64,000 nt of DNA from Dehalococcoidia bacterium. GTDB taxonomy: Bacteria > Chloroflexota > Dehalococcoidia > Lucifugimonadales > Australimonadaceae. Made by a program: the position numbers and the translations under genes. The stretch covers positions 491,039-555,038 of the forward strand of contig DAOUJO010000001.1 in assembly GCA_034422595.1 (NCBI GenBank). Reading direction: 5' to 3'. The notes beneath the pieces were generated by a model. The model ran no database searches. It was not told where the DNA came from and saw only the letters and a list, made by a program, of their open reading frames with translations. Of this stretch, positions 34,884 to 47,089 are shown one piece after another (positions within the stretch are counted from its first letter, which is position 1; every line of letters starts with the position of its first letter).

Positions 34884-36740
34884 CTACCGCACGGGTTGGG
34901 TTACGGAGAGTTTGATCAGGAGATCCGAGTTGTCTCTAAACACCACAACGGTATAGACCCCCGGCTTGGTCGCACGGTTTCCCAGGGAAGCAGTGAATCT
35001 GAAAGATGAAGTGTTCTCATCCCATCTGTCAGCCTCTACGTAGACGGCACCGAGATTCGAGTATGAGGAGCCAGCCGGAGCAGGCGGGATGATACCCGCA
35101 ATACGTTCGCCGCACGTCTCGATGAACCCAACGCCGCCGATGCATGCCCCAGAGTTGAGGAACTCTATCTCGCCTATAGTCAGAGGAGCATTGGGCGGTG
35201 TGTAGTAGATATCGATAGTTCTGTGAACGCGAACCCCCGATTCCCGCTTTGATAGAGACAGTGCGAAAGCGCCGCCAAGCGATAAGGACGGCCCGTCGTC
35301 GGCCTCAGCAGCCCCACCTCCGAAGAGTTGAGCAAATGTATATCGCCTACCATCGTACGCAATCCCAATGTTCAGGGTCTGATGTGCCGGATCGAGGATG
35401 TTGCGTCGGTGCCCGGGAGAACCCATGAGACCCTGTTGGAGGCGTACGATGGCATCCCGAGGAGGGGCAAGCCGACAATTCGTAAGAGAAACGCACCCCC
35501 AGTCGGCAGTGTTCTCTTGTGCGTAGCTCGTTCCACCTGTCTCGGAATAAACCTGTGTCGGGTCGCGTCCGTCTATCCACCAATGACCGCTGTAGTTGTG
35601 TTCAAGCATGTCCTCGGCATGGAGTTGTGCTGCTGGATTCGAGCCAAGGGTTACGGGCCGCAGACCGTGTCCTGCTCTGTCCTTGTTCACAAGTTCGAGC
35701 GCGAGCAAGCGCAACTCCTCTACCTCGGAAGCACTCAGCCTCTGCTTACCCACTAACGGCGTCGATGTCGCAGTAGGTCGTGGTCGTAGTGTTGGCGTGG
35801 CAGTCGGTGTTGGACGCGGGGTCGCCGTAGCCGTTGGGGTTGCTGCAGGTGGCGGCGTGGGTGTCGCTGTGGGACAAGGCGGGAGCGGCGTAGAGGTAGG
35901 CGGCCCGAGCGTGGGTGTCACCGTGGGCGGCTCTGGGGTGGGGGTAGGCGTCGGCGTCAGTGGGGCAAGCAGACTCCGGCACTCCGCAACCGGCGCATGG
36001 TTCTGAACTGCCTCGGTGAACAGGCCGCGCTGGTGGCGCAGCCAGATCATCCACGAGAGTGCAGCAGCGCCCTGGCCGGGAACAGGTTCCCGCTCCAGCC
36101 GGTGCGCGTCTACCAGGAACTCGGCGGTCTCGAGGTGCACCTCGAACACGGCCACCCGGCGGCACGCGTCAACCGGCAGCAGGCTGCCCAGGTCGTCCAG
36201 TCCGGTGTCGAACACGGCGAAACTCTCCGCGAGCGCGGCGTCCACCTGCTCCCTGCTCCAGTCGCCTGCCCGCTCGCGCCACTCGTCCGAGAGCGGTTCC
36301 GGCGCCTCCCAGGCGGGCGTTGGTGTTGCTCCGGGAATGGGCGTTGCCAACAGCGCGGGGGTTGGCGTTGCGCCTGGAGCGTCAGGCGTGGGCGTGGGAT
36401 CGGCGCACGGGTATGGCGTCGGAGTGGGCCCAGCGAGCACTGGCGCAGGCGTTGGTGTGGGAGCGCCTTCCTGCCCGGCCTGGGGAGTGGGAGTCGGGGT
36501 CGACAGGAACTCGAACTCGACTGGCAGCCCGTGTTGCGTGTACCAGTAGTAGCCCCCGCCGATGGCCGCGATGAGCAGCAGCAGGGCGAGCCAGCAGCAC
36601 CCGTGCCCGCCCGACGAACCGCCTCCGGGACTGACGACAGTAGCAGTGCGTCCTCTACCACCCCCGCGTGACCGGCCCCCCTGCGGTCCGGGAGCCATAC
36701 CCCGGCGCTCCCGGTAGTACTCCCTGTCCTGGATCGGCAT
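34884..36740 (-). CDS. Membrane-anchored CAP/SCP (PR-1, YkwD-like) domain protein with two PT-rich linkers
   Basis: ORF 34884..36740. TM helix CCWLALLLLIAAIGGG. CAP-type motifs NKDRAGHGLRPV, YSGHWW, GSPGHRRNIL. Confidence 0.8.
   Translation of the reverse strand: MPIQDREYYRERRGMAPGPQGGRSRGGGRGRTATVVSPGGGSSGGHGCCWLALLLLIAAIGGGYYWYTQHGLPVEFEFLSTPTPTPQAGQEGAPTPTPAPVLAGPTPTPYPCADPTPTPDAPGATPTPALLATPIPGATPTPAWEAPEPLSDEWRERAGDWSREQVDAALAESFAVFDTGLDDLGSLLPVDACRRVAVFEVHLETAEFLVDAHRLEREPVPGQGAAALSWMIWLRHQRGLFTEAVQNHAPVAECRSLLAPLTPTPTPTPEPPTVTPTLGPPTSTPLPPCPTATPTPPPAATPTATATPRPTPTATPTLRPRPTATSTPLVGKQRLSASEVEELRLLALELVNKDRAGHGLRPVTLGSNPAAQLHAEDMLEHNYSGHWWIDGRDPTQVYSETGGTSYAQENTADWGCVSLTNCRLAPPRDAIVRLQQGLMGSPGHRRNILDPAHQTLNIGIAYDGRRYTFAQLFGGGAAEADDGPSLSLGGAFALSLSKRESGVRVHRTIDIYYTPPNAPLTIGEIEFLNSGACIGGVGFIETCGERIAGIIPPAPAGSSYSNLGAVYVEADRWDENTSSFRFTASLGNRATKPGVYTVVVFRDNSDLLIKLSVTQPVR
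35757..35963 (-). repeat. Coding low-complexity Pro/Thr linker (aa 260-328 of the CAP protein)
   Basis: [68 protein letters not shown]. Confidence 0.8.
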
Positions 36741-39441: not shown

Positions 39442-39483
39442 CTAGACGCGGTAGCGGAACCGCCCCTCCAGTTGGTCGCGGTT
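39442..39483. repeat. Left 42-bp direct repeat, an orphan copy of the AAA+ gene 3-prime end
   Basis: ctagacgcggtagcggaaccgcccctccagttggtcgcggtt is 40/42 identical to 43542-43583. It would encode NRDQLEGRFRYRV followed by a stop on the minus strand. Confidence 0.8.
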
Positions 39484-39532
39484 GAAGTTCTCTATTCCCA
39501 TCATACTCCCCACGGTACCCACTCGAAGCCAA

Positions 39533-42385
39533 TCATGAACGAATGAGACCCCTATCCAGTTCCTTGAGCTGATGGTCCGGGGCAGTAAGGCGAGCACGAG
39601 CCCAATCTCGAACGTCTTCCTCGTGCGTGAACAAAATCACTTGGATGTCCTTGTCCTCACTAATCACGAGCAGCGTGTCGAGAATGGCCTTCTTTCGCTG
39701 GGCATCGCAGGCAGCGACCGCATCGTCCAAGATGAGCGGACAAGGCTCCTCACGAGTGAGGTGTTGCGCCAGTGCGAGTCTAAGGAGGAGGTATATCTGC
39801 TCGGCGGTTCCTCTTGAGAGGAGGGCTGCATTTCGCCAGCGTTTGTTAGCACCAGCCAAGTCAACGGCCAACGACTTCGGGTTGACTCGGCAATCGACAT
39901 ATCGTTCGTCCGTTACAAACGGGAGCCATTGGAGGACAGTTTCTCTGAGAATGGGGGCTATGTCGCGGTGAACACGCTCCTGAGCAGATTCAAGGAACTT
40001 AGCGGTGAGTTGGATGGTGCTGCTAAGTTCTGCGAGTCGGCGGTGGTCACGCTCGGCATTCGCAAGCGCGTCTTCGGCATCAGCGACGCTTGATACTGTA
40101 CGCGCGAACTCGGTGAGCTCTCCGGTCGCTTCTGTGTGATTGGACATAGCCTCGTGCAACTCTCCCAGAGCACTCTTTAAGTCACTTTGGGTGGGCTGCT
40201 CGGCACGAGCATACGCAAGCGCCTCACTCGCGACACGAGGTGCGACTGATTGCGCCTCCTGCAGTAGACGTTCGACCTCGTCCTCCACATCCTGAAGCGA
40301 TCGTTCGCCCAACATCTGCTGCAGCACATCCCACTGTTGCATTCGTTCATTTGCTTCAGTAACGCTCTGCGACCGGCGCAGAAGCCATTGGTTGAGCGCT
40401 GCCACAGTGGCGTCAGGTTCATCTGCATCAGCGCCGATTGCTGCAACTGCCGCCCGCAACCTGGCATGTGCTATATCAACCCTGCGGCTGTCTTCCAAGA
40501 AGAGTTTGTCAGCGCTGTTGCGTTCGGCCCGTTGCCGCTCCCAGTCAATGCGTTGCCCACTTGTACGATCCTCCAGTCCTGCCAGTTGTTCCCGTGTGAG
40601 GTTCCTTGTCCGAGCGGCGGCAAGTAGATTTTCGTCGGTTCCCGCAACAAGTCGGGTTGCTACTTCAGCAGACCTCCTGGCCTCGCCTTCAATGACCCCA
40701 AGTGATTGTTGCGCTAACAGTCCCTGGAGTTTGTCCCACAGCAAAGAGAGCCTTCCATACTCACCGAGTCGAGCTTCCCGGACTTGCAGCCAATCGTGCA
40801 ACGTCTTAACTGCTGTGTGATCGTCGGATGCGGTCGCACCGCATTCGGCCGCAGTTTCGTGGAGCCTAGTCAGTACAGTTTCTCTGCGCAGGACGTCATC
40901 CTGGTAGCGACGTTCCTCCTCCATGCGGACATTCAAGCGTTGTTCGATGCTGCGACGGTTCGTTTCAAAGAGGAATTGATCGTGGGCGGGGGGCCGCATA
41001 CCCACGAGGGCGACGACCCCGGCCGCGGCCCCCGCGGCCATAAGCCCTGCACCCAGTATGAGGAGGTCAGGCAGGATGAACGCTATCCCGAGACCTGCCG
41101 CTATGGCGACCCCTGACAGTATGAGTAGAGGCAGTCTGCGGCCACCCGGGGCCGACCGGGCAGCATTAGTCCGCGCGTCAAATGCGGTGAGTTCCTCGCG
41201 TATCTCTGCCGAATTTTGGCCGACAGGTTCCTGGGGCCTTGCAAGCGATTCGAAGTCCTTCAGCACATCGCGGACACGATTGGCCAAGTGTTCTTCGTCA
41301 GGAGAAGTTCGCGGGGGGCCGTCCGGGAACTGACTGCTTAGTTCCCTCGCACTCATGTAGCGTTCCTTCGCAGCCTCTGCCTCCTTCTCAGCAACAGCGG
41401 CGCGCAGTGCGGCCAATTCTCGTTCGGCATTCTCAATATGCCGAGTGAGTGCATCTGCAGTAAGCCCACCGGGTTCGATCGGTTGGGGCCGAGAACTCCA
41501 TGCCTCTAAGGCAGTGGTTACCTGCTCAAACAGCGCATCATGCCCGGGGGAAGGATGTGGCGGACCATCGGGAAACAGGTTGCTCAGCCGGCGAATCTCT
41601 TCAAGGCGCTCCCGCGCATGAGCAGCAGCCGCCTCAGCAATCACAGCACTTATCGCATCCGCTTCGCTCTGGAGCTCCTGTGCTCTTCGTTCCAAGAGGT
41701 CTACTGCCGTGCGCCGCCTGATGTACTCCTCGCGTTGCGCTCTCGCATCATCCAATGCCCTACGAGCCTGCTGTTCCGCAACTTGTGATTGTCGGAGTGG
41801 TTTGGTCGGCGACCGACTCGTGCCAACAACATCTCGCAGATAGCGGTCTAGACGTTGAAGGGCGGCAGCTGCCGTGGAGTCTGCGCCGGCAGTCGCTGCA
41901 GCTCGTTGCATATCGTCCTGAAGCATCGCCGGGTTATCGAGGATGCCTAATATGTCGGCTTGCCGAACGCATGCCGTATTGAGGAACGTACGACGGTTCA
42001 GTCCGAGCCAACGCGATCCGTCAGGTGCGCCCTCAAATAGTATCTCGTTCCTGTAGTCCCGGCCTGCAAGATGCGTGTCCCTCACAGTGCTCGATCTGTT
42101 CACCAAGTCATGCCTGAGTTCCACGCTGCGACCATCGGCGAGGGTGATTACGACGTTGACTTCCCAGGCTGTACCATCCCAAGGCTTGTGGCGTTCCGCG
42201 AACTCGCGTACATCTTTGCTGTTGCCCTGAGCGCGGCGCATCCCGCAGAGTCCCGCGTAAAGAGCGGCGTGCCAGGAGGACTTCCCCGCCTCGTTGGGGC
42301 CATAGATGATGTTCATCCCAGGGGCGAGTTCTAATACATCTCTTAGCGGACCAAATGCAGGAGCATCTATCTTGTCGAAGCGCAT
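39533..42385 (-). CDS. Rad50/SbcC-like AAA ATPase with long coiled coils and two central TM helices (YhaN-like architecture)
   Basis: ORF 39533..42385. Walker A GPNEAGKSS, signature LSRGTAEQ, Walker B PLILDDA, H-loop LFTHEED. Mid-protein LPLLILSGVAIAAGLGIAFILPDLLILGAGLMAAGAAAGVVALVG. Confidence 0.85.
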   Translation of the reverse strand: MRFDKIDAPAFGPLRDVLELAPGMNIIYGPNEAGKSSWHAALYAGLCGMRRAQGNSKDVREFAERHKPWDGTAWEVNVVITLADGRSVELRHDLVNRSSTVRDTHLAGRDYRNEILFEGAPDGSRWLGLNRRTFLNTACVRQADILGILDNPAMLQDDMQRAAATAGADSTAAAALQRLDRYLRDVVGTSRSPTKPLRQSQVAEQQARRALDDARAQREEYIRRRTAVDLLERRAQELQSEADAISAVIAEAAAAHARERLEEIRRLSNLFPDGPPHPSPGHDALFEQVTTALEAWSSRPQPIEPGGLTADALTRHIENAERELAALRAAVAEKEAEAAKERYMSARELSSQFPDGPPRTSPDEEHLANRVRDVLKDFESLARPQEPVGQNSAEIREELTAFDARTNAARSAPGGRRLPLLILSGVAIAAGLGIAFILPDLLILGAGLMAAGAAAGVVALVGMRPPAHDQFLFETNRRSIEQRLNVRMEEERRYQDDVLRRETVLTRLHETAAECGATASDDHTAVKTLHDWLQVREARLGEYGRLSLLWDKLQGLLAQQSLGVIEGEARRSAEVATRLVAGTDENLLAAARTRNLTREQLAGLEDRTSGQRIDWERQRAERNSADKLFLEDSRRVDIAHARLRAAVAAIGADADEPDATVAALNQWLLRRSQSVTEANERMQQWDVLQQMLGERSLQDVEDEVERLLQEAQSVAPRVASEALAYARAEQPTQSDLKSALGELHEAMSNHTEATGELTEFARTVSSVADAEDALANAERDHRRLAELSSTIQLTAKFLESAQERVHRDIAPILRETVLQWLPFVTDERYVDCRVNPKSLAVDLAGANKRWRNAALLSRGTAEQIYLLLRLALAQHLTREEPCPLILDDAVAACDAQRKKAILDTLLVISEDKDIQVILFTHEEDVRDWARARLTAPDHQLKELDRGLIRS

Positions 42386-43503
42386 CAGAGCACGTCCAAG
42401 TCTTCGCGCCCATCAAGGGCGCGAAGGCCAGTAATCAGAAGTCTGCGCTCAACTTCGGGGTCAAGACGCGCACTTAGCACATCTCTCACAAACTGACCGC
42501 GTACGGTAGCCTCTTCGCGGATTACCTCCACCTCATATCCCTGCCGGAGTTCCTCGGTGTGTATCTGTGTCGCATCGAAGAACTGACTCAGCACATCGCG
42601 CAGAGCAACCTCTGGCAAGTCTAGGGCTGGCGCCAGATCGCCTGTAACGGCAAGCCGAGCAATGCCCTTCAGCCCCTGCGCCACCTCGGCAAGCCTTTCG
42701 CGCACGTCCTGCTGGGACGTGCAGCCGGTAACGTCGAGGGTGATGTCATGAACCTGGGTAACTGCCACGGAGCGCCTCTCCCGTGTGACCCTGCCATTCG
42801 ACGCAATCGTAGCCAAGACCGGCCCACGCACGAGGCTAGCAGTCCTATCCTCTCCGAATTGCAGTGGGGCAGGGTTGCCCGGATATGTATGGCGTTCAGC
42901 GTCCTTGGGACGATGGTAGTGACCAAGGAAGGCGTGATCTAGTCCCGCATTTACGATGTCTTCGGTGTCAAAGGCAGCGTGAGGTTCTTTGCCGCTTCCT
43001 TGTTCGGAGAGCCACGAGAGCTCTGCTCCGTGGAAGAGCGCCACATGGACTCCAATACCTTCCGTCCGAAAGCCACTTAGGAAGTTACCGGTGTTGGCAG
43101 GCGCGCAATGGGCAGCCCCCCAGAGCGTGAGCCGATCAGCGAGAGGTAGAGGCTGCAGGCACGACTCTTTGAAAACGTGGACGTTGCTGCTCCACTCGCA
43201 GGTCGAGTAGACGCTGCCAGGCGCGTAGTAGTCATGGTTCCCAGGAGCAATATAGACCCGAACGGGACTAAGGTCGCTGAAGACTGTCTTGAGGAATTCG
43301 GCGGTGTCGGGCGTTACTCGGTCGTGTTCGTAGAGGTCTCCGGCACAGAAAAGGGCCTCTGCGTTAGTCTCACGGACCAATCCTGCTATGGAGAGCAGGG
43401 TCTCGCGAAGAGCCTGTCGCCTTCCGCGAGCAACGTCGCCCGTAGCGCCGCTCCAAGCGAATGCCGAATCAAGATGAAGGTCAGCAAAGTGGACAATCCT
43501 CAT
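42385..43503 (-). CDS. Mre11/SbcD-like calcineurin-type metallophosphoesterase (YhaO-like)
   Basis: ORF 42385..43503: FADLHLD, GDLYEH, GNHD, GHYH. Its stop overlaps the start of the ATPase gene. Confidence 0.85.
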   Translation of the reverse strand: MRIVHFADLHLDSAFAWSGATGDVARGRRQALRETLLSIAGLVRETNAEALFCAGDLYEHDRVTPDTAEFLKTVFSDLSPVRVYIAPGNHDYYAPGSVYSTCEWSSNVHVFKESCLQPLPLADRLTLWGAAHCAPANTGNFLSGFRTEGIGVHVALFHGAELSWLSEQGSGKEPHAAFDTEDIVNAGLDHAFLGHYHRPKDAERHTYPGNPAPLQFGEDRTASLVRGPVLATIASNGRVTRERRSVAVTQVHDITLDVTGCTSQQDVRERLAEVAQGLKGIARLAVTGDLAPALDLPEVALRDVLSQFFDATQIHTEELRQGYEVEVIREEATVRGQFVRDVLSARLDPEVERRLLITGLRALDGREDLDVL

Positions 43504-43541
43504 TGTGAAACCCTATCACCGGAACCAAGCTTGAATAGGGT

Positions 43542-43583
43542 CTAGACGCGGTAGCGGAACCGTCCCTCCAGCTGGTCGCGGTT
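43542..43583. repeat. Right 42-bp direct repeat, the functional 3-prime end of the AAA+ gene
   Basis: ctagacgcggtagcggaaccgtccctccagctggtcgcggtt. Exactly 4100 bp from the left copy. Confidence 0.8.
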
Positions 43584-44981
43584 CAGGCGGCGGTTCAGGT
43601 GCAGCCCCTCCAGCACGAACTCGGCCGCCGACGCCGCCTCCGGCCCGCTGCTGCCCGTGCCGAGTTTGCTCAGCGCGCCCGCGAACCCCTCCAACTGACC
43701 CATCTCCTCCAGGTAGACGCTGGCCGGCAGGTCCGCGCCGGTGTCGAACGTCTGCCCGGCCTCGAACGCCATCACGAGCTCGTCGAGTTCGTGCGGCTCG
43801 AAGTGGCGGTCGAACACGTTGAGCAGGGCGCGCTTGATGAGCTCGTCGACGATCTTGGCCTCGCGCCCCTCCTCCATCGTCTCCAACTCCACCTTGCCGA
43901 GCGTCGAGGCGATGATGAACGCGAAGTCCGTGATGCGCGGGACGGCCTGCCCCTCGCCCTGCGAGATGGCGCGCCGCAGCGCGTTGGCCGCGACCGTTTC
44001 GTAGTTGGCGATGGAGACGCGCACGCTCACGCCGGAGCGCTGGTTGATCTCCGGGTGCCTGCGCGCGAGCCCTGTGAACTCCGCGATGAGCTCCTTGATG
44101 TACTCCGGCACGACGATGGGCTCCTCCGCGCCCGGGAACTCGTTCCGCTCCTCGTCCATGATGGAGATCTCCTGTGCGATCTCCCTGGGGTAGTGCGTGC
44201 GTATCTGCGCGCCGTAGCGGTCCTTCAGCGGCGTGATGATGCGCCCCCGGTTCGTGTAGTCCTCCGGGTTCGCGCTCGCGACCACGAGCACGTCGAGCGA
44301 CAGCCGCACGAGGTAGCCCTTGATCTGGACGTCGCGCTCCTCCATCAGGTTGAAGAGTCCCACCTGGATGCGCTCCGCGAGGTCCGGCAGCTCGTTGATG
44401 CAGAAGATGCCCCGGTTGGTGCGCGGGATGAGCCCGTAGTGGATGGCGAGCTCGTCCGAGAGGTAGCGCCCCTCCGCGATGCGGATCGGGTCGACGTCGC
44501 CCACGAGGTCCGCGATCGAGATGTCGGGCGTCGCGAGCTTCTCGCCGTAGCGCCGGTCGCGCCCGATCCACTCGATGGGCGTGTCGTCGCCCTCCTCCTC
44601 GATGAGCTCGATGGCGTAGCGCGAGATGGGGGCGAGCGGGTCGTCGTTCACCTCGCTGCCCCGCACGATGGGTATCTCGTCGTCGAGCAGCTCCACGAGC
44701 GCGCGGATCATGCGCGACTTCGCCTGTCCGCGCTCGCCGAGCAGGATGATGTCCTGCCCCGCGAGGATGGCGTTCTCCACCTGCGGGATGACCGTGTCCT
44801 CGTAGCCCACGATGCCGGGGAAGACCGGCTCGCCGTTGCGCAGACGGCTCATGAGATTGCGGCGCAGTTCGTCGCGGACGGACGTGACGGCGTAGCCGCT
44901 CTCGCGCAGCGCGCCGAGCGTCGACGGTCGTCCGTTCCTGGAGGGTTTCCTGGTCGCGGGCTTCTTTCGCGTGGTAGCCAT
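43542..44981 (-). CDS. ChlI/MoxR-like AAA+ ATPase (magnesium-chelatase-like)
   Basis: Within ORF 43542..45245, ATG 44981 (MATTRKKPATRK...). Walker A LLGERGQAKS, Walker B IFCINELPDL. Confidence 0.8.
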   Translation of the reverse strand: MATTRKKPATRKPSRNGRPSTLGALRESGYAVTSVRDELRRNLMSRLRNGEPVFPGIVGYEDTVIPQVENAILAGQDIILLGERGQAKSRMIRALVELLDDEIPIVRGSEVNDDPLAPISRYAIELIEEEGDDTPIEWIGRDRRYGEKLATPDISIADLVGDVDPIRIAEGRYLSDELAIHYGLIPRTNRGIFCINELPDLAERIQVGLFNLMEERDVQIKGYLVRLSLDVLVVASANPEDYTNRGRIITPLKDRYGAQIRTHYPREIAQEISIMDEERNEFPGAEEPIVVPEYIKELIAEFTGLARRHPEINQRSGVSVRVSIANYETVAANALRRAISQGEGQAVPRITDFAFIIASTLGKVELETMEEGREAKIVDELIKRALLNVFDRHFEPHELDELVMAFEAGQTFDTGADLPASVYLEEMGQLEGFAGALSKLGTGSSGPEAASAAEFVLEGLHLNRRLNRDQLEGRFRYRV

Positions 44982-45061
44982 GGGCGCTCCTGGGGAGGGA
45001 TCGCGCCGGAGACCGGCGCCTCCTCTCATTCTACACAAGCGAGGGTGGGCGGCGGCGCGGG

Positions 45062-47089
45062 CTAGCTGACGATGCGGCGCTTGCGGTTGTTGAGGTAGTC
45101 GACCAGCACGTACTGGCCCAGCTTGCCGGGCGAAGTGTAGAGCGCGCGGCCATTGTTGATGCGGGTGACGCGGTCGATGAAGTCCAGCAGGTAGTAGCTC
45201 GTCTCCAGCATGAAGGTGTTGATGGTGATGCCTTCGGCGGTGCAACGGCGGACCTCGCGCAGCGTCTCATGGATGGTGCGGTAGGTCGGGGGGTAGTTGA
45301 AGTAGGAGCGCGTCCCTTCCAGGTGGGCCGTGGGCTCGCCGTCCGTGATCATCAGGATCTGCCGCGAGCAGTTCTTGTAGGGGGCGAGCAGCTTCCGCGA
45401 CATGGCGAAGGCGTGCTGCATGTTCGTGCCGGAGACCCACATGTTCCACGTGAGCGTCGGGAGGTCGTCGGTCTTGATGGGAACGGCGTAGTCGGAGAAG
45501 CCCACCATCCAGAAGCGGTCGCGGGGGAACTTCCCGCGGATGAGCGCTTCCAGTGCGAGCGCGACGCGCTTGGCGGCGCCCCATGAGCCGAACATCCCCA
45601 TCGACTTGCTCTGGTCGATGAGCAGGACCGTGGCGGCCTGCACCACGTGCTCGGTGCGCTTCACCTCGAAGTCCTGGATGCCGACCTTCACCGGCGTGCC
45701 GACGCCCTGCCGCTCGATGGCGTTCATCACGGTGCGGTGCAGGTGTATCTCGAACGGATCGCCGAACTCGTAGGGCTTGGTCTCGTCCGTGTGCTCGCCG
45801 CCGGTGCCCCGCACCGCCAGCTCGTGGTCGCCGGCGCGGCCCTTGCGAAGGTCGCCGAAGAGGTCGCGCAGCACCTTCTGGCCTATCTTCCGCACGGCTG
45901 CGGGCGTCAGCTCCAGCCGGTCGCCGTCGCGGCGCAGGTAGCCCGCCTCCTCCAGCCGCTTCGCGATTTCGGCGAGCCGGTCCAGGTCCTGGCGGGCCTC
46001 CTCGCCGAGCAGCGCTTCGAGCATCTCCGCGTCGAGTTCGTCGAGGTCGCCCCGGCGCATCGCCTGCCTGATCTGCGCCTCGAGGTCGTCCATCGACTGC
46101 AGCTCGCCCATGACGTTCATCGCTTCTTCCAGGGTCATGTTCTCCTCGCCCTGGAAGAGACGCTGCTCGGCGAACTCGTTGAACGGGAGCATCTGGCCGA
46201 GGTTCGCGGCGAGCTCGGCCAGCTCGTCGGCGGTCTCGGGGTCCATGGCGGCGTTCATCGCCTCGAACAGTTCGCGCCGCTGCCCCGGCGACATGCTGTC
46301 GAGCAGGCTCTGCATCTGCCCCATCTGGCGGGCGAGCATCTCCATGAGCTCGTCGAAGCTGCGCGGCGGGTCGTCGCCGAACATGGCGCCCCACTTGTCC
46401 ATGAAGCCCTCGAAGTCCGGCTCCAGGCCGTCGAGCTTGTCCCGGATCATCTGGTTGAGGTCGCGCAGCATCTCGCGCATCAGGGCCATCTGCTGCGGGT
46501 CCATGTTCTCTATCTGCTGCCGCATCTCCGAGGCGACGGAGCCGAGCATCTCCTTGCGCAACTCGTCCATGAGCTCCTGGAACTTGCGCTGCGCCTCGGG
46601 GTCGATGAAGTCGAAGTCCTGGAGTTCGCGGAGCGCGCCCGCCGTGCTCTCGGGGAGCTGGTCGAGCCGTTCGCGGTTGCGGTCGGCCCGCTGCTTGAAG
46701 AGGTCGCGCAGCCGACCGGCCTGCTCCGCCTCCTCGCCGCTCATGTTCGCGAGGTTGTCCTCGATCTCGCCGAGGCGGCGCTCCATCCCTGCGCGCTCGG
46801 TCTGGAGCACGTCGTCGAGCCGCTCCTTGAGGTCGCGCATGACGGAGTCGGGGTCGTAGCGGTCGAGCGTCTGGTTGCGGCGCGAGCGCAGGCGTTCGAG
46901 GAGGTCGTCGAGTCCGGGAAGGCGGGTATCGTCGCCGCTGGCGCCGCGGCGGATGAGGTCGCGGAGTGCGCGGCGGATGTCGCCGTGGTCGATGACGTCC
47001 TCGGCCAGTGCGTCGAGGAGCGCATCGGCGTCGGCTTCGAACGGCTCCTGCGAGCCGTCCCACTGCGAGTACCGGTAGAGCCTTGCCAC
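45062..47089 (-). CDS. von Willebrand factor A (VWA) domain protein with a long acidic helical N-terminal region
   Basis: ORF 45062..47089. MIDAS-type LLIDQSKSMG near the C-terminus. Paired with the AAA+ gene. Confidence 0.8.
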   Translation of the reverse strand: MARLYRYSQWDGSQEPFEADADALLDALAEDVIDHGDIRRALRDLIRRGASGDDTRLPGLDDLLERLRSRRNQTLDRYDPDSVMRDLKERLDDVLQTERAGMERRLGEIEDNLANMSGEEAEQAGRLRDLFKQRADRNRERLDQLPESTAGALRELQDFDFIDPEAQRKFQELMDELRKEMLGSVASEMRQQIENMDPQQMALMREMLRDLNQMIRDKLDGLEPDFEGFMDKWGAMFGDDPPRSFDELMEMLARQMGQMQSLLDSMSPGQRRELFEAMNAAMDPETADELAELAANLGQMLPFNEFAEQRLFQGEENMTLEEAMNVMGELQSMDDLEAQIRQAMRRGDLDELDAEMLEALLGEEARQDLDRLAEIAKRLEEAGYLRRDGDRLELTPAAVRKIGQKVLRDLFGDLRKGRAGDHELAVRGTGGEHTDETKPYEFGDPFEIHLHRTVMNAIERQGVGTPVKVGIQDFEVKRTEHVVQAATVLLIDQSKSMGMFGSWGAAKRVALALEALIRGKFPRDRFWMVGFSDYAVPIKTDDLPTLTWNMWVSGTNMQHAFAMSRKLLAPYKNCSRQILMITDGEPTAHLEGTRSYFNYPPTYRTIHETLREVRRCTAEGITINTFMLETSYYLLDFIDRVTRINNGRALYTSPGKLGQYVLVDYLNNRKRRIVS

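Follow-up and report, generated by a model that had tools for sequence, protein, structure and literature searches.

A predicted membrane-anchored SbcE/SbcF-type nuclease gene pair in a repeat-bounded, exchangeable cassette of a Chloroflexota operon

A gene pair bounded by a 42 nt direct repeat

A stretch of 64,000 nt from a Dehalococcoidia bacterium (the window; positions 491,039 to 555,038 of GenBank contig DAOUJO010000001.1) was found to include a cassette of two minus-strand genes, one for an Mre11/SbcD-like phosphoesterase and one for a Rad50/SMC-type ATPase (Table 1), located between host genes for an AAA_5 ATPase and a TrxB-like flavoprotein. Both open reading frames (ORFs) were recovered exactly as given in an earlier description of the region made from the sequence alone (the original prediction). 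They share a single base, with the stop codon of the phosphoesterase gene and the start codon of the ATPase gene forming a TGATG overlap (cTGATGc), and are translationally coupled. By sequence relationship the pair can be placed, as a distant member, in the SbcE/SbcF (YhaN/YhaO, AAA_27) family and is not a new kind of system. What appears to be new is the genetics of the pair in this clade, where it forms a replacement cassette that is bounded by a repeat and has alleles of ancient origin.

Table 1. Features of the cassette and of the two encoded proteins (positions are those of the window)
Feature	Position	Strand	Details
Mre11/SbcD-like (SbcF/YhaO-like) metallophosphoesterase gene	42385..43503	-	372 aa; ORF, Pfam, motifs, AlphaFold2 (AF2) fold
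Phosphoesterase motif I, DLHLD	43468-43482	-	aa 8
Phosphoesterase motif GDL			aa 55
Phosphoesterase motif III, GNHD	43231-43242	-	aa 88
Phosphoesterase motif V, GHYH	42913-42924	-	aa 194
SbcE/YhaN-like Rad50/SMC-type ATPase gene	39533..42385	-	950 aa; ORF, Pfam, motifs, AF2 fold
Walker A, GPNEAGKS	42278-42301	-	aa 29
Two-helix hydrophobic hairpin (predicted transmembrane)	41003..41137	-	aa 417-461, coiled-coil apex; Kyte-Doolittle, AF2
Signature, LSRGTAEQ	39797-39820	-	aa 856
Walker B, LILDDA	39719-39736	-	aa 884
H-loop, FTHEED	39614-39631	-	aa 919
Direct repeat (42 nt), upstream copy	43542..43583	-	last 13 codons and TAG of the AAA_5 gene, ending NRDQLEGRFRYRV and stop
Left cassette end	43504..43541	-	38 nt spacer from host gene stop to phosphoesterase start
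Right cassette end	39484..39532	-	contains GGGAGTATGATGG
Direct repeat (42 nt), downstream copy	39442..39483	-	
Mini-ORF, MMGIENFNRDQLEGRFRYRV and stop	39442..39504	-	20 codons; right cassette end (GGGAGTATGATGG) plus downstream repeat copy

The G+C content of the pair is 0.585, compared with 0.66–0.68 in the flanks and 0.673 in the whole window. The two copies of the repeat are identical at 40 of 42 positions and spaced exactly 4100 nt apart (0 expected by chance, 100 shuffles). The original prediction had placed only two genes on the insert, and two real genes were found there, together with a mini-ORF of 20 codons at the right end; no integrase or recombinase was detected between the repeats. 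An empty site was found in a Joint Genome Institute (JGI) metagenome contig (L091), using a degenerate pattern designed for the unoccupied junction. In L091, the AAA_5 and TrxB-like genes are direct neighbours, the repeat occurs once and no remnant of the pair is left, and both genes are closely related to those in the window (AAA_5, 96% aa and 93.5% nt identity; TrxB-like, 95% aa identity). Because L091 has an empty site, the cassette was considered to be acquired and non-core. The shift in G+C content, the repeat and the empty site agree with the earlier claim of an acquired islet in an unrelated operon.

Direct repeats, a compositional shift and an empty site, as expected of a site-specific island, were therefore all present, and an integrase of its own was not. 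An integron attC-like end was also considered but was rejected by eye, as GTTGAAG does not match GTTRRRY and the repeat itself duplicates the tail of a host gene. The near-identical flanks could allow exchange of the cassette by homologous recombination or, alternatively, a recombinase supplied in trans might use the repeat as an att core. The same 29 nt stretch of the repeat forms both ends of a contig from Logan (L005; 1–30 and 4087–4116), which is either repeat-bounded or a circle, and the window's own short contig (L001) stops just outside both repeats. These contig ends may reflect polymorphism at the junction within the sample.

Deeply diverged alleles at the same junction

The AAA_5/TrxB-like junction was occupied in six related contigs, and the identities of the alleles to those in the window are listed in Table 2. 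In a 100 nt identity profile, values of 0.91–0.98 in the flanks fell precisely at the repeat boundaries. Inside the cassette, identity was 0.7–0.85 in the nuclease gene and the N-terminal half of the ATPase head, 0.5–0.6 in the arms and hairpin and 0.8–0.87 in the C-terminal half of the head. Between the window and L003, synonymous divergence (dS) in the flanks was 0.17–0.25 (proportion of synonymous differences, pS, 0.15–0.2) and the cargo was saturated (pS about 0.68–0.70, dS > 1.8). The ratio of non-synonymous divergence (dN) to dS in the cargo of the same two contigs was 0.05 for the nuclease and the ATPase heads and about 0.2–0.3 for the arms, which indicates purifying selection, and neither decay nor positive selection.

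Table 2. Amino acid identity (%) of cassette alleles and their flanks to the window
Contig	Description	Flanks	Nuclease	ATPase
L002/L003	'Chloroflexi bacterium' metagenome-assembled genome (MAG) GCA_009840345.1	97-98	83	59
L006	Logan contig	96-98	79	59
L093	European Nucleotide Archive (ENA) contig	93	85	59 (N-terminal part only)
L005	repeat the only visible flank		70	64
L007	more distant lineage	78-83	69	50
L092	more distant lineage	71-83	70	53

In neighbour-joining trees, the junction alleles formed one clade beside a homologue from Dehalococcoidia and those of Candidatus Palauibacter. The nuclease of L005 clustered with that of L007 and its ATPase with that of the window, and the cassette itself is therefore mosaic. 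The G+C content was 0.58–0.61 for the alleles in the window, L003, L005, L006 and L093, 0.62–0.64 for L092 and 0.68, the host value, for L007, and no repeat was present with the L007 allele. Three states of the cassette were seen among the relatives: empty, occupied, or exchanged for at least four deeply diverged alleles. It was concluded from these comparisons that the pair forms an accessory cassette in this Chloroflexota clade, with gain, loss or replacement affecting all of it or large pieces of it, and that its alleles long predate the genomes now carrying them.

'Replacement' flexible islands known from the population genomics of marine microbes usually span tens of kb and carry surface-polysaccharide genes. 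The cassette resembles them in having a shared locus, sharp boundaries, a lower G+C content and divergent alleles in near-identical genomes, but differs in being a 4.1 kb, two-gene DNA-nuclease cassette bounded by a 42 nt repeat. Both the Chloroflexota and the Palauibacter genomes are presumably those of sponge symbionts, judging from the sample labels.

The phosphoesterase and the ATPase

Every motif previously quoted for a calcineurin-type phosphoesterase of 372 aa was present (Table 1), and the protein matched Pfam Metallophos (E 3e-13). An AF2 model was built with 58 homologues (predicted local distance difference test score, pLDDT, 89; predicted template modelling score, pTM, 0.81), and the top 50 Foldseek matches to it were all Mre11/SbcD. 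The best PDB matches were to Thermotoga maritima Mre11 in the Mre11:Rad50 complex (3tho_B, 2.6e-14), and Escherichia coli SbcD in the SbcCD head complex (7yzo_B) was matched at 6e-13. The structural alignments cover the protein from end to end, including both the nuclease and capping domains, and the C-terminus of the model is made up of two short helices (334–344 and 349–363) where Mre11 has the helix-loop-helix that binds Rad50. The motifs and the model show an intact active site and fold of the Mre11 type. A match to the NCBIfam 'DS9_1 anti-phage phosphoesterase' model was dismissed as irrelevant (18 bits, cutoff 420). DS-9 consists of an SMPDL3A-like phosphatase and a HAD enzyme (PMC13092281).

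In the 950 aa ATPase, too, all of the quoted motifs were found. A bipartite ABC head (Walker A, Q-loop, signature, Walker B and H-loop) is split by a long coiled coil, and this split head is intact. The protein matched Pfam AAA_27 (PF13514) with 30.9 bits (cutoff 22), and AAA_23 and SMC_N were also matched. A profile of 12 ATPase sequences searched against the PDB detected Rad50 head domains (3qku, 8.5e-11), and the best PDB match to the AF2 model (83 sequences, pLDDT 79) was also Rad50 (7zr1_C, 5e-15), followed by structures of Smc5/6, MukB, LmuB and JetC. In the model, the two halves of the head (aa 1–190 and aa 829–942) are separated by helices spanning 196–410, which are broken at two FPDGPPxxSP motifs, and 468–824. 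The arms total about 630 residues and have the hydrophobic hairpin at their midpoint. The Walker B motif is Asp-Asp, not Asp-Glu, and this is invariant in the close subfamily and in members from Bacillota.

Tandem duplicated modules were seen in both arms, namely aa 258–306 and 340–388 in the N-arm and aa 549–571 and 684–707 in the C-arm; the former include the FPDGPPxxSP breaks and the latter WDxLQxxLG motifs. Members of the family fall into length classes of about 650–750, 900–930, 950–970 and 1,170 aa. The discrete length classes, together with the duplicated modules, suggest that the length of the arms, and hence their reach from the membrane, apparently changes through gain and loss of modules.

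A hydrophobic hairpin instead of a zinc hook

Two adjacent transmembrane helices had been reported at the position where Rad50 and SbcC carry the zinc hook, and a hairpin is indeed predicted there by both hydropathy and structure modelling. The Kyte-Doolittle maxima over 19 residues are 2.59 and 2.18, compared with a usual threshold of 1.6, and AF2 places the hairpin as helices 418–437 and 439–461 between the long helical arms. The helices are joined by a Pro-Asp turn, each has one near-invariant Gly (G431 and G452), and arginines border the hairpin on both outer sides. No CxxC zinc hook was found anywhere in the 950 aa ATPase, which has six cysteines.

The same arrangement was found across the family. 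A central hydrophobic segment was present in 141 of 148 family representatives, drawn from the top 150 matches in a library of 50%-identity clusters, and none of the 148 had a CxxC motif in the central third. In the homologues that were fetched, the hydrophobic maximum was mostly at a relative position of 0.44–0.50. A minority of members have a shorter, amphipathic apex. The membrane hairpin in place of a zinc hook is thus a predicted hallmark of the SbcE/SbcF family, and this raises the question of why a DNA-end nuclease should be tied to the membrane.

Relationship to SbcE and SbcF

The likeness to Bacillus YhaO/YhaN noted in the original prediction amounts to family membership, as the ATPase scores above the cutoff for PF13514 and its profile matches Bacillus/Paenibacillus AAA_27 proteins over the full length. 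Using hhalign, the match had a probability of 99.9% and an E value of 9e-34 over 901 columns, which include the central hydrophobic part. The comparators were six AAA_27 proteins in all: one from Bacillus sp., three from Paenibacillus/Paenibacillaceae, one from a Candidatus Udaeobacter MAG and one from an Acidobacteria MAG. When two of them were searched with Pfam, AAA_27 was matched with E values of 1e-17 (Bacillus sp.) and 1e-23 (Paenibacillus faecalis), each with an adjoining Metallophos gene, and in all six of six comparators a Metallophos-like gene adjoins the ATPase gene (phmmer). SbcE and SbcF of Bacillus subtilis are themselves presumed to belong to the PF13514/AAA_27 family.

The gene order is also conserved. 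Genes were called with a self-trained codon-model caller using dynamic programming, which reproduced reference calls, and the ATPase gene was recovered at 43 of the fetched loci. In 37 of these, all close relatives included, a same-strand Metallophos gene is directly ahead of it, and the six loci where no such neighbour was detected are distant, truncated or fragmented copies. The 37 loci are from Chloroflexota, Gemmatimonadota, Acidobacteriota, Actinomycetota, Bacillota, Planctomycetota and Desulfobacterota. With 1,412 representative clusters (50% identity, E ≤ 1e-30) in many phyla, the family is large, and it has been neglected. Searches for functional literature on it found a single study (PMC2811018), and PDB sequence searches found no solved structure of a family member, only distant Rad50 and Mre11 relatives.

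In that study, YhaN and YhaO of B. subtilis were renamed SbcE and SbcF (Krishnamurthy et al. 2010, PMC2811018). SbcE is SbcC-like, has no CxxC motif and contains a 'unique central domain' that is insoluble, with a hydrophobic first half and a conserved proline, and yhaO, encoding the SbcD-like protein, is immediately upstream of yhaN (PMC2811018). The mutants are sensitive to double-strand breaks and slightly reduced in transformation, and both proteins gather at the pole of competent cells (PMC2811018). The central domain was not described as transmembrane, and no phage or plasmid phenotypes were tested (PMC2811018).

The cassette pair shares with SbcE/SbcF the position of the SbcD-like phosphoesterase gene upstream of the SMC-like ATPase gene, SbcC-like heads, arms of about 300 residues, the lack of CxxC and a hydrophobic centre with a conserved proline. 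However, the Bacillota members are only about 20% identical to the proteins examined here, and the B. subtilis genes lie in a yhaO-yhaN-yhaM locus (PMC2811018), in contrast to the repeat-bounded, exchangeable, low-G+C cassette in Chloroflexota. The original statement that no described defence system has this composition held for the defence catalogues, but as a gene pair the composition is already known as SbcEF.

Homologues in other lineages

In two Candidatus Palauibacter (Gemmatimonadota) contigs, L009 and L011, the pair is in a common neighbourhood, with MacB/FtsX and patatin genes upstream and Pyr_redox_2, SSB, Rho and GyrA genes downstream, and has diverged together with it. The dS values were 0.74 for the nuclease and 1.0 for the ATPase, compared with 0.57–1.0 for the neighbours, and only the ATPase has evolved faster at the protein level (dN 0.29 versus about 0.1 in the neighbours). 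The pair thus looks core in Palauibacter. Homologues that are uniformly core had been named as speaking against a mobile defence module. They were syntenic and co-diverging in Palauibacter, but in this Chloroflexota lineage the pair is accessory and hyper-diverse. In both Palauibacter genomes, the gene for a patatin-like phospholipase is 4–9 nt upstream of the phosphoesterase gene and on the same strand (L009, 7719–8879; L011, 7822–8883). A Pyr_redox_2 gene is just downstream of the pair in Palauibacter, as it is at the Chloroflexota locus.

A third arrangement was found in L010 (1–22733), where the ATPase is a 910 aa variant with a short amphipathic apex and the phosphoesterase is truncated or degenerate. 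This homologue is flanked by integrase, Mu transposase and SLFN/HATPase genes (SLFN_AlbA_2, HATPase_c_4) to one side and by TerB and BrxC (BrxC/BrxD) genes to the other, and ParA, RNase_H_2-helicase and DDE transposase genes also belong to this mobile/defence neighbourhood.

When the neighbours at 37 loci were surveyed, they were mostly metabolic or housekeeping genes (glycosyltransferases, GGDEF, Rieske oxygenases and acyl-CoA dehydrogenases), and no integrase or transposase family was among the top 25 neighbour Pfams. A PADLOC scan of 209 proteins, three genes on each side at the 37 loci, gave strong but scattered matches to AbiE, MzaA, MkoA/C, SngAB, BrxD, IetA and mad genes, with at most about 14% of proteins matched before any correction for background. 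No homologue of the ATPase was found in the 72,556 plasmids in PLSDB, and the only matches among phage records were remote Mre11-like recombination exonucleases with 24–32% identity.

Proposed mechanism

It is likely that the pair forms a membrane-tethered nuclease that processes DNA ends. The best explanation of the data is probably an Mre11-Rad50-type, ATP-gated DNA-end nuclease that has a membrane hairpin at its apex instead of a zinc hook. The proteins would form an (SbcF)2(SbcE)2 complex, similar to M2R2, with the nuclease and the ATPase heads in the cytoplasm. The hairpins would cross the membrane or reach into it, with both of their ends on the inside, because there are arginines on both sides and the loop is only 1–2 residues, and could pack against one another by their small-residue faces, serving as the apex dimeriser in place of the zinc hook. 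In this way, the hairpins would link the arms together and fix them to the inner membrane face. Binding of ATP would close the heads on a DNA end, admit it to the nuclease and license cutting, as in SbcCD. With the arms tied to the membrane and the heads clamping ends, the enzyme would act on DNA ends at the membrane.

In the nuclease, the resemblance to SbcCD/Mre11-Rad50 extends to the motifs, the fold, the capping domain and the helix-loop-helix at the C-terminus. In the ATPase, for which Rad50 is the best structural match, it includes the bipartite ABC head and antiparallel coiled coil, and the two genes are likewise coupled. The differences are the membrane hairpin with no zinc hook, the Asp-Asp Walker B and scores far below the SbcD and Rad50 equivalog cutoffs.

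Several points weigh against this interpretation or parts of it. The phosphoesterase is far under the SbcD cutoffs (TIGR00619, 46.7 versus 77.65 bits; NF008206, 19 versus 450), and with SbcD and Rad50 equivalog scores this low the predicted activity is extrapolated over a large distance. Family membership was established via Bacillus sp. and Paenibacillus AAA_27 proteins, not via the B. subtilis YhaN sequence. For the hairpin, AF2 confidence reaches only about 62, and it is possible that the hairpin is a buried hydrophobic dimerisation bundle rather than a membrane segment. The Asp-Asp Walker B may mean that ATP turnover is slow or regulatory; this form resembles that of RecF, which hints at slow hydrolysis. 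For the cassette, the empty site in L091 may be a precise deletion between the repeats and not a site that was never occupied, and, with no recombinase aboard, the mechanism by which the cassette moves is conjectural.

Possible roles

By default, we read the pair as repairing or processing DNA ends at the membrane. By analogy with B. subtilis, repair/recombination-type processing of chromosomal breaks or incoming DNA has close to an even chance of being its role. If the role is plain repair, the locus would be a tidy case of a repair module moving as exchangeable cargo. This cassette pattern is unusual for a repair complex, and the three states found in near-identical genomes argue for selection other than routine repair in this lineage. 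It makes the idea of defence testable while leaving it unestablished.

Restriction of incoming foreign linear DNA at its point of entry is possible but must be considered tentative. A membrane tether would put the nuclease at the site of entry, where ends would be clamped and degraded while the chromosome was spared by its location. We give a similarly cautious rating to the proposal that turnover of the alleles results from frequency-dependent selection by phage inhibitors. In favour of a defence role, the cassette in this lineage is accessory and hyper-diverse, foreign in composition and abruptly bounded, and near-identical genomes carry deeply diverged alleles of it, but accessory status and allele diversity are not unique to defence genes. 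The company kept by the L010 homologue and the strong PADLOC matches in some neighbours are consistent with defence, but the commonest neighbours are metabolic or housekeeping genes, integrases and transposases are outside the top 25, and in Palauibacter the pair is syntenic and has diverged along with its neighbours. A precedent for Rad50- or SMC-like proteins in immunity is provided by Lamassu, Wadjet and eukaryotic MRN (PMC10586767). SbcE gathers at the competence pole of B. subtilis, but the mutant loses repair and transformation and does not gain transformation (PMC2811018).

Searches for known systems were of little help to this proposal. PADLOC, NCBIfam and Pfam scans of the pair gave no match to a defence system, and no PADLOC system or effector model fits; the matches of the ATPase to the LmuB model (PDLC03859, 52 bits, E 1.6e-14) and to mad3 (C-terminal part only) are partial. 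The preprint on MADS shed no light on the similarity to mad3, no membrane-anchored SMC/Rad50-like defence system was found in the literature, and SbcE is not mentioned in a 2023 review of SMC proteins in immunity (PMC10586767). With no PADLOC system match, mostly metabolic neighbours, no homologue in PLSDB and a relative that acts in repair and competence in B. subtilis, the defence role put forward in the original prediction was not established. The broader idea that SbcE/SbcF-type complexes are a widespread, unrecognised form of innate immunity, with hot-swappable alleles kept diverse by phage counter-measures, is more doubtful still.

It is very unlikely that the two genes are vertically inherited housekeeping repair genes whose divergence is due to fast evolution of the coiled coil. 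Divergence is greatest in the coiled-coil middle in all comparisons, and in Palauibacter the protein sequence of the ATPase has evolved about 2–3 times as fast as those of its neighbours at a similar dS. Relaxed constraint, however, cannot raise dS tenfold, and the pS of the cargo is about 0.7 (saturated) versus 0.15–0.2 in the flanks, with the well-conserved nuclease gene equally saturated. In addition, an empty site exists and there is a gap of 8–9 points in G+C content. In this lineage, the explanation is thus contradicted by the dS contrast, the identity profile and the empty site.

Lamassu and Wadjet are cytosolic systems. Many LmuB proteins carry zinc hooks, and no membrane anchoring is mentioned for Lamassu or Wadjet (PMC10586767). 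Like them (Wadjet being JetABCD), the cassette combines a coiled-coil ABC ATPase with a nuclease and is accessory and horizontally mobile; unlike them, it has no counterparts of LmuA, LmuC or JetA/B/D, and the hidden Markov model (HMM) similarity is weak and partial. Abortive infection of the Lamassu type, with an SMC-like LmuB sensor and a nuclease effector, is the least probable explanation of all, as the PDLC03859 match and the LmuB structures among the fold matches (9uxh_F, 5.8e-8; 9hqx_B) are set against a partial LmuB match that is weaker than those to Rad50/SMC, the lack of an LmuA-type effector match and of an LmuC gene in a cassette of two genes only, and a partner that is a complete Mre11/SbcD homologue with a Rad50-binding-type C-terminus, which is the arrangement of the repair complex.

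Host operon and a second indel

In the host operon, genes for a VWA protein and a Rieske oxygenase are upstream of the AAA_5 gene, and the TrxB-like gene is followed by one for a GFO/IDH oxidoreductase. The segment at 43542–47089 (minus strand) encodes the AAA_5 ATPase and the VWA protein, for which the precomputed Pfam annotation of L002 gives Rv0959/Mb0984-type domains. Neither a promoter-like site nor a minus-strand terminator-like site was detected in the islet, and the 38 nt left spacer likewise had no promoter-like site. No tRNA gene was found within the window. The cassette, which lies between two co-oriented host genes, is probably read through from the host operon.

At the right end, GGGAGTATGATGG is kept in four alleles, among which that of L005 has one substitution. 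The mini-ORF terminates on the native TAG, 13 nt ahead of the ATG of the TrxB-like gene, and may preserve translational coupling of the downstream host gene after insertion. A shortened version of the mini-ORF is retained in L003.

A second difference in gene presence was observed in the window. It involves a gene for a 618 aa CAP-domain protein (cysteine-rich secretory family) at 34884–36740 on the minus strand, where the G+C content dips to 0.57. No boundary repeat was found around this indel. The gene has no counterpart in L002/L003 and is partly present in L091.

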